The notes under the pieces are model-generated. The model was not told where the DNA came from, did not search any database, and saw only the letters and a program-made list of their open reading frames with translations. Positions 960 through 2,015 of a stretch of 64,000 nucleotides of DNA are shown here, one piece after another. The position numbers and the translations under genes were made by a program. This stretch comes from Candidatus Multivoradales bacterium (GTDB lineage: Bacteria > Acidobacteriota > Thermoanaerobaculia > Multivoradales > J023). Numbering within the stretch: the stretch's first letter is position 1; each line of letters begins with the position of its first letter. The stretch is from the NCBI GenBank assembly GCA_965248925.1, contig CBDFLE010000005.1:928001-992000 (forward strand), written 5' to 3'.

Positions 960-2015
960 CTAGAAAGCGCAGTTTGCCAGAGTTCCGATGTTGTAGTAGC
1001 CAACGAACACGGTAGCTGGCGTGGCAACAAACGACACGGCCCGGCCCCCGGCGCGGACAGCGCCCGAGGCCGATCTTGCTACCGCGGAGTTTGGGAAAGC
1101 CCTCTTAAGGGGAGATCCGACAAGTGCTCTTCCTGGGTTAGTCAAGGGGTCTGTTGCTTTCGGGACCCTGAAAGGCGGCAGTAAACGCTTCGGAAAAGCT
1201 GAACCGAAAACTACCGCACCGGCATTGATCCTATTCTTCCGCACGCACCGTGAATAGTCTACGCCGTCAATAGGCAAGCTAGCCAGAGCGCGATCATGTA
1301 ACGCAAGCGGTGCCGGGTCAGGGCGACTGGATACTTCAATGAAAGCCAAGAGGGTAGGGAAAACATCTACCGAGGATTCTCCATCGCCACCCTCGGCGCT
1401 GTCGACTACGTCAATCCGCTCGCCACAGATCACAGTCTGCGAACCGTCTTCGCTGGTTTGAGTAACGCACTCCGGGTCAAGACCATCCGGGTCGACCAGG
1501 TTTAGAGGGTTGTTCACTACATAAGAGTAGCGATTCCAAGATTGTGGGATTGGCGCAGTTCCGTTTACTGGATCAATACTCAAGAACCTCCCCACCACCG
1601 GACTGCAATGCCGAGCGTGCATGTAGTCCAGCTCGCTACGGCTGCCTGTGCCGGTCTTATCCCTCTCATGGCCGGTAAACTTCAGCCCAATCTCATCAGC
1701 ACCAGCGTTAGTCGCCTCTTGACCGAACGGGTAATAGTTGTGCAACGCCACCTGCTGACCACCTCGGGTGAAGGGGACAGCCCGACGCGGTTTCCAGCTT
1801 GAGAGCTGGTAACCCTCTATGCCTGTTCTACTTAAGCCTCGCTCGGCCCTACTGCCGGCGGGGTCTTGGTGCTCGAAGGTCCAGAGGCGAGTTTCGGCGT
1901 AGCTCGACTCGGAGATCGGCGCGATCGCTGTTGCCGGCATCGTCACCGCCAGGAGCGCGACGACCAGCCCGAGCGCCATCGTCCAAGTGCTTCTTCCTTT
2001 AGCTGCCTGCCTCAT
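960..2015 (-). CDS. Orphan Rhs module: invariant leader + Rhs core + toxin tip A
   Basis: YYPFG..KFTGHERD..LDYMHAR..GRFLSIDP..NPLNLVDPDG core signature followed by a unique C-terminus. Confidence 0.85.
   Translation of the reverse strand: MRQAAKGRSTWTMALGLVVALLAVTMPATAIAPISESSYAETRLWTFEHQDPAGSRAERGLSRTGIEGYQLSSWKPRRAVPFTRGGQQVALHNYYPFGQEATNAGADEIGLKFTGHERDKTGTGSRSELDYMHARHCSPVVGRFLSIDPVNGTAPIPQSWNRYSYVVNNPLNLVDPDGLDPECVTQTSEDGSQTVICGERIDVVDSAEGGDGESSVDVFPTLLAFIEVSSRPDPAPLALHDRALASLPIDGVDYSRCVRKNRINAGAVVFGSAFPKRLLPPFRVPKATDPLTNPGRALVGSPLKRAFPNSAVARSASGAVRAGGRAVSFVATPATVFVGYYNIGTLANCAF
1754..1781. other. Candidate att-like recombination site at the leader/Rhs-core junction; copies at 9608, 18932, 31165, 38647, 46189 and a half-matching copy at 56637
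   Basis: GCTGACCACCT-CGGGTG-AAGGGGACAGC, an imperfect 11-6-11 inverted repeat; identity to full-length rhs stops 1 nt past the spacer. Confidence 0.6.

Follow-up and report, generated by a model that had tools for sequence, protein, structure and literature searches.

The window, that is, the whole stretch of 64,000 nucleotides analyzed here, comes from a Candidatus Multivoradales bacterium and carries one full-length rhs gene followed by a repeated unit of ∼7.5 kb, composed of a tip, an immunity candidate, an HTH regulator, a SymE-family protein, a primase, a XerC-type recombinase, and a leader. The full-length Rhs (55795 to 60852, minus strand), here regarded as the target gene, has 1685 amino acids and a signal-like N terminus. 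One of the repeat units holds a tyrosine recombinase (2907 to 3980, minus strand; PF00589, with the XerC subfamily model NF002331 above cut-off), a CHC2/Toprim primase with a C-terminal P-loop region (3980 to 7144, minus strand), a SymE-family protein (7217 to 7513, minus strand), and a divergent HTH_3 regulator (7560 to 8054, plus strand), with ∼890 nt between the recombinase and the leader.

Six minus-strand open reading frames (ORFs) of 351 to 367 amino acids start with the same 82 residues, and the corresponding 246 nt are identical in all six. From residue 83 on (TRGG...), they match the full-length Rhs from its residue 1401, and the Rhs core model TIGR03696 scored above cut-off in all four distinct ORFs scanned, which bears out the sequence-only reading in its claim that six orphans share an 82-residue start in frame with the Rhs core. 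Copy 1 (960 to 2015; 351 amino acids) joins the leader to an Rhs C-terminal core and a hydrophobic tip; its 82 leader codons (1770 to 2015) comprise a signal-like n/h/c region at about codons 1 to 32 and then a linker that runs through the terminal arm of the element described below. Copy 2 (8814 to 9869) has the same tip as copy 1, and copy 4 (30371 to 31426) the same as copy 3 (18138 to 19193), so that two tips are tandem duplicates and the six ORFs carry four different tips. Copy 5 (37847 to 38908) shares an ATGA overlap with an 80-amino-acid immunity candidate (37608 to 37850). Copy 6 (45347 to 46450), whose tip is that of the full-length Rhs, overlaps an 84-amino-acid candidate (45096 to 45350) in the same way.

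Candidate immunity ORFs adjoin or overlap the tip ORFs, with the ATGA overlap in two of the four tip types, and they gave no Pfam or NCBIfam match. The putative immunity gene next to copy 1 (500 to 937, minus strand), assigned by its position, encodes an N-terminal hydrophobic helix and has its own GGAGG site. One tip matches PDB entry 6d7y_A (E = 2e-4), two others had no meaningful PDB match, and the Atlas leads for tips all score under 0.9.

Across the genome, the leader occurs in 12 identical copies, spread over four rhs loci, and in two diverged ones. All 12 fusions stay open for 351 to 367 codons and carry 10 distinct tips; one tip sits on a full-length rhs gene at two loci. A protein search with residues 1 to 82 matched only nine proteins, all from this same genome and covering 85% of the 82 residues, as gene callers apparently begin at the second Met. 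Given that protein searches do not lead beyond this genome, homologous leaders were gathered from their DNA context.

Other features lie in and around the array. IS3-type transposase pairs (10347 to 11929 and 19671 to 21253, plus strand) are located ∼460 nt upstream of two leaders, with −10 box and leader intact, and an IS21-type element (istA/istB) occurs at 21538 to 24440 and at 49238 to 52139, where it splits a primase gene. A Big_9 domain protein (60865 to 61293) lies directly upstream of the rhs gene and also at the C6:3617 kb locus, and positions 62047 to 63998 encode a glycosyltransferase and a fascin/DUF7910 protein. The genome contains dozens of Rhs cores, and one rhs array (G000:C6:2444000-2458000) is free of the element and shows orphans of the classical type, with upstream fragments of variable length.

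The leader forms one end of a probable integrative element

A 7-bp sequence, TCACCCG, is common to the full-length rhs gene (56648 to 56654, minus strand; attL-like junction) and to the six junctions of leader and displaced rhs fragment (attR-like; 1765 to 1771 in copy 1, minus strand, and 9619 to 9625, 18943 to 18949, and 31176 to 31182 in copies 2 to 4). On the leader side it is flanked by CCCCT, and in two junctions AGGGG flanks it as well. Directly after TCACCCG the six junctions differ (GGT, GGC, or GGG), and the rhs fragments diverge within a few bases, as expected for a site-specific crossover with this 7-bp overlap. From this structure, which is directly observed, we infer that the repeat unit recombines as an integrative element bringing its own tip. 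Displacement by classical homologous recombination was rejected as a description of the locus: the leader junction is fixed in 12 of 12 copies with the dedicated XerC adjoining, and the displaced fragment has its own start.

The leader is therefore the terminal arm of a XerC-primase-SymE element, a cause that the sequence-only reading had missed. That reading took the invariance of the leader as meaningful; the element copies are 92 to 100% identical, so that the invariance reflects their recent copying and selection can be tested only in homologues.

A DNA motif, AAACTCGC(G/C)TCTGG (1881 to 1894, minus strand), is found family-wide ∼120 to 127 nt before the crossover and is probably an arm site of the recombinase. 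Here it reads ETRxW, and other frames are used elsewhere; ETRxW as a protein motif was ruled out on the grounds that the conservation lies in the DNA. Wherever simple cases could be mapped at both junctions, repeats start 120 to 127 nt past the arm motif, even with targets that are unrelated in sequence and entered at differing depths in the gene. A circular 11.3-kb non-mobilizable record, L232 1-11289 (NZ_CP072857.1), carries a distant homologue whose primase-XerC-HTH-SymE unit is present once in full and once truncated, together with nuclease tips, making it a candidate for the free form of the element.

The leader frame follows the tip frame in homologous element ends

XerC searches matched 11 of 61 genomes (this one among them), 80 metagenome loci, and 74 genome loci. 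The nearest recombinase relatives (82 to 85%) include Thermoanaerobaculia and Acidobacteriota, and the motif AAACTCGCGTCTGG is present in 99 of 177 distinct element ends. To set the tip frame independently of the leader, we required 90 codons without a stop past the junction and then scored openness over the preceding 70 codons. In a first set of 69 ends with enough sequence, 7 of which were dropped for having no single tip frame, the tip frame was open in 43 of 62 ends versus 10 of 124 for the other frames. A DNA profile supplied 40 new, held-out ends (27 testable, 1 dropped), with the tip frame open in 22 of 26 versus 6 of 52. After refiltering, the pooled counts were 67 of 90 versus 17 of 180; the ends are related, so these counts are not independent, though the same pattern is seen in more than one phylum. 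Three of the 90 come from this genome, and one of these was scored open though its ATG is out of frame. The sequence-only reading had named a frame not conserved in homologues as a result that would refute it, and most ends show the opposite.

Each of the three motif frames occurs among the open leaders (in 28, 31, and 8 ends), with different frames used in separate clades of a quick, midpoint-rooted tree. Compared with this element, L144 and L139 have a target phase shifted by one base and a leader shifted by a matching one-base indel. The frame is closed in the remaining 23 of the 90 ends, including all 6 gammaproteobacterial ends in the tree. Among 41 homologous fusions, Pfam could name the tip in just 6. 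In a clade formed by L097, L113, L124, L166, and L175, a stop closely precedes the crossover, and an ATG or TTG lies in the tip frame a few codons ahead of the crossover, possibly giving a shortened leader.

Among plasmids, 25 records had a match, and of the four that were read, one end in an Enterobacter cdiA array is open with a signal-like start. In this plasmid (L234, 16723 to 17586), tandem elements follow cdiA-cdiI, and the signal-like leader reads in frame into a VENN tip. A blastn comparison of this leader-tip ORF with its cdiA showed no repeat, and L233 showed none either. In linear plasmid regions, three of the four ends read, from two records, are closed, and the circular plasmid record has no clear leader.

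A promoter-like box and a probable leaderless-type start

Eight nucleotides before the ATG of copy 1 lies TAGAAT (2024 to 2029, minus strand), a −10-like hexamer that suggests a leaderless-type start. The same spacing is found in all six ORFs of the window, and there is no Shine-Dalgarno sequence between hexamer and ATG, in agreement with what had been noticed from the sequence alone. A sigma-70 scan of positions 1700 to 2950 returned no −35/−10 pair. Across this genome, −10-like hexamers peak 6 to 10 nt before ATGs near the starts of long ORFs (38, 17, 13, 22, and 9 of 2208), versus one or two per gap among 1459 internal ATGs used as a control, or 99 counts versus 7 over the five gaps. Given this genome-wide peak, a leaderless start may account for the missing ribosome-binding site. 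In the homologous ends the gaps from −10 box to start are likewise mostly 6 to 10 nt, and TA[CGT]AAT followed by ATG or GTG within 5 to 10 nt occurs 24 times in the tip frame versus 3 times in the other frames. The box persists in 13 of 23 closed-frame ends, compared with 44 of 67 open ones, so transcription looks more basic than the fusion.

The −10 box and the start codon are flanked by an inverted repeat, GCRGCTAAAGG, with an upstream arm at 2054 to 2064 (plus strand) and a downstream arm at 1996 to 2006 (minus strand) that encodes the AAKG of the basic n-region. Both arms are present in 36 of the 90 homologous ends. The repeat is possibly an operator or a recombinase site and could tie leader expression to the recombination state; the hairpin at the promoter is not significant (z = 0.34).

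The signal-like N terminus is specific to certain lineages

The leader follows the pattern of a Sec signal peptide, with a basic n-region, a hydrophobic h-region, and an AxA c-region. Scored with a heuristic of our own, it has a hydropathy of 3.0 and a run of 27 uncharged residues, and a low-confidence predicted model places a helix at residues 9 to 24. This model, made with AlphaFold from a 24-row alignment (pLDDT 50, pTM 0.25), was uninformative on whether the plug folds alone. By the same heuristic, 26 of the 90 homologous ends have a signal-like start in the tip frame, versus 1 of 180 in the other frames. These comparisons support a real start and, in this lineage, an N terminus that appears to have been selected for its signal-like character. 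Sec export by itself reaches the periplasm only.

No signal was found in 41 of the 67 open leaders. Signal-like starts are lineage specific and nearly absent throughout a large clade rich in Acidobacteriaceae. The Rhs hosts at L214, L216, and L219 begin signal-like even though their leaders lack a signal, and this comparison of leaders with the hosts seen led us to drop the notion that leaders carry a signal only where the host Rhs does.

Constraint on the amino acids of the leader appears weak. The pN/pS ratio ranged from 0 to 1.7 over 19 leader pairs (against L144, 1.18 for one half of the leader and 0.69 for the other), and in a drift simulation of one pair a signal-like, stop-free 5′ part was kept in 12% of 20,000 runs; taken alone, these two analyses do not demonstrate protein-level selection. 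Both diverged leader copies in this genome are broken, and contigs from four runs of a single sample bear this out for one of them. In L002 (13357 onward; G000:C6:3629356), a 1-nt deletion near codon 12 leaves an ORF of 23 codons whose TGA overlaps a GTG in the Rhs frame, and this frame, counted from a later ATG, runs on without a stop for 766 codons; the variant in three runs differs upstream and has the same leader. The other copy, L001 (G000:C4:259861), has a stop at codon 69 and joins a different YD-repeat target out of frame; it may be a secondary-site insertion.

A proposed expression cassette for displaced toxin-immunity pairs

The explanation that we favor, at slightly better than even probability, is that the element supplies a cassette with a leaderless start that keeps the displaced toxin-immunity pair expressed, with retention of immunity as the main benefit. 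The tyrosine recombinase would insert the element at the 7-bp overlap inside rhs. The host gene would thereby acquire the incoming tip, and its former tip-immunity pair would come to lie ∼7 kb downstream, past a divergent gene and separated from the promoter. The far end of the element would then provide a −10 promoter and a leaderless start, and the recombination arm there would serve as a linker free of stops, in the frame of the target. Cells would still require the old immunity protein, since siblings may go on delivering the matching toxin, and translation through the tip would avoid polarity and drive the overlapping immunity starts. In this lineage, the Sec-type signal may carry the toxin, an unavoidable by-product, out of the cytoplasm, and lineages without a signal may rely on binding by the immunity protein. 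Once the element is excised as a circle, this leader would drive the tip-immunity pair that the element itself carries.

Expression of the displaced pairs is probable. Retention of immunity is favored as its benefit because of the −10 boxes in closed ends, the ATGA overlaps, and the varied architecture of the products, and because orphan immunity is known to be made and has been proposed as the benefit by Poole 2011 (PMC3150448). The sequence-only reading had offered, as one option, that the leader sustains coupled translation of downstream immunity genes. Its immunity part fits the present data better than export does, and strict coupling is at odds with the GGAGG site of the gene at 500 to 937; transcription together with translation through the tip is the form in which we would retain it. 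A promoter alone could express immunity genes with their own ribosome-binding sites, so that a need for the fusion is presumed.

The other option of the sequence-only reading, that the displaced tips are active exported mini-toxins, appears unlikely to us. In this view, signal peptide, linker, Rhs protease plug, and toxin would be secreted together, cleave themselves, and harm neighbors, each integration adding a weapon. The tie of signal-like starts to the tip frame speaks for it, as does their occurrence with unrelated sequences in Acidobacteriota, Verrucomicrobiota, Planctomycetota, Actinomycetota-labeled, and Enterobacter loci; all 12 genomic fusions are intact at 351 to 367 amino acids, the full-length Rhs hosts have signal-like starts too, and the C-terminal plug begins at the crossover, which leaves both DPxG-type motifs in the fusion (plug and catalytic Asp as in PMC8636562). 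The start and the signal-like N terminus thus stand, and working export does not follow from them: most open leaders are signal-less, even with the signal-bearing hosts named above; the fusions have neither the barrel nor the receptor-binding part, nor a demonstrated outer-membrane route; and junctions lie at the toxin edge, in the core, or hundreds of codons upstream, so the product architecture is not conserved.

Signal-less leaders, which give cytoplasmic products, would suit an addiction module instead, in which toxin and immunity expressed from the element end stabilize the array or the excised circle in the manner of a type II toxin-antitoxin system. Homologues carry RelE/DinJ-type pairs at this position, and orphan Rhs-CT/I pairs from internal promoters act as type II toxin-antitoxin systems in Salmonella (PMC7043789). 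In this lineage, however, a signal peptide would take cytoplasm-acting toxins away from their target, counter to addiction, and the element already has SymE; overall, we regard addiction as quite unlikely. Finally, the end could be a mere recombination arm with DNA-binding sites, whose open frame and hydrophobic run arose by chance in GC-rich DNA and were copied along with the element. This would agree with ETRxW and the n-region AAK being DNA motifs read in different frames, with the weak pN/pS signal and the simulated drift, and with the persistence of broken copies. Nevertheless, frame, start, and signal all keep to the tip frame, at rates far higher than in the other two frames of the same DNA, and they do so in different clades and with different target phases, which makes such a by-product very unlikely.

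Implications and comparison with known systems

How orphan toxin tips originate, move between cells, and are retained is a long-standing question, for which the published model combines homologous recombination with silent tips. The element described here is a concrete vehicle, with 7 bp as its defined site, and suggests why displaced pairs persist. Its recombination arm doubles as coding sequence, with the frame retuned to each target, and the family is a source of recombinases whose two junctions are both in-frame gene fusions. In the searched literature, mostly open papers, we found no description of the element or of the leader, and a prior description is possible. A wider claim would be that a widespread, apparently undescribed primase-XerC family edits Rhs, CdiA, and other toxin genes site specifically, making every displaced tip a secreted mini-toxin with a leaderless start and its immunity; in this full form it seems unlikely, and if the secreted mini-toxins were real, the arrays would be active arsenals rather than archives. 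Tests are feasible in cultured, harmless carriers of the element, namely, Edaphobacter aggregans DSM 19364 (L173, without a signal) and Allorhodopirellula solitaria CA85 (L164, with a signal).

Rhs displacement as presented in Jackson 2009 (PMC2935791) is alike in that a new tip enters, the old core, tip, and immunity gene are shunted downstream, arrays result, and a circular intermediate is proposed; the element here differs by its fixed 7-bp crossover, its own recombinase and primase, and the new start. The CDI/Rhs orphan modules of Poole 2011 share the expression of orphan immunity, seen as a benefit. Those orphans generally lack initiation signals or a signal sequence and are cotranscribed from upstream, whereas here the element supplies both. 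In the Salmonella Rhs-CT/RhsI toxin-antitoxin case, an orphan tip and its immunity gene are likewise expressed as a short unit, but the promoter and a CTG start lie inside the rhs core, and neither an element-borne leader nor a signal peptide figures in the sections that describe it. Integrative elements with attP replacement, as described in PMC10111431, resemble this one in that attP holds a replacement 3′ end and the target gene stays functional. Unlike in those elements, the 3′ end brought in here encodes another toxin, and the 3′ fragment that it displaces acquires a new 5′ end, so that each event gives two ORFs.
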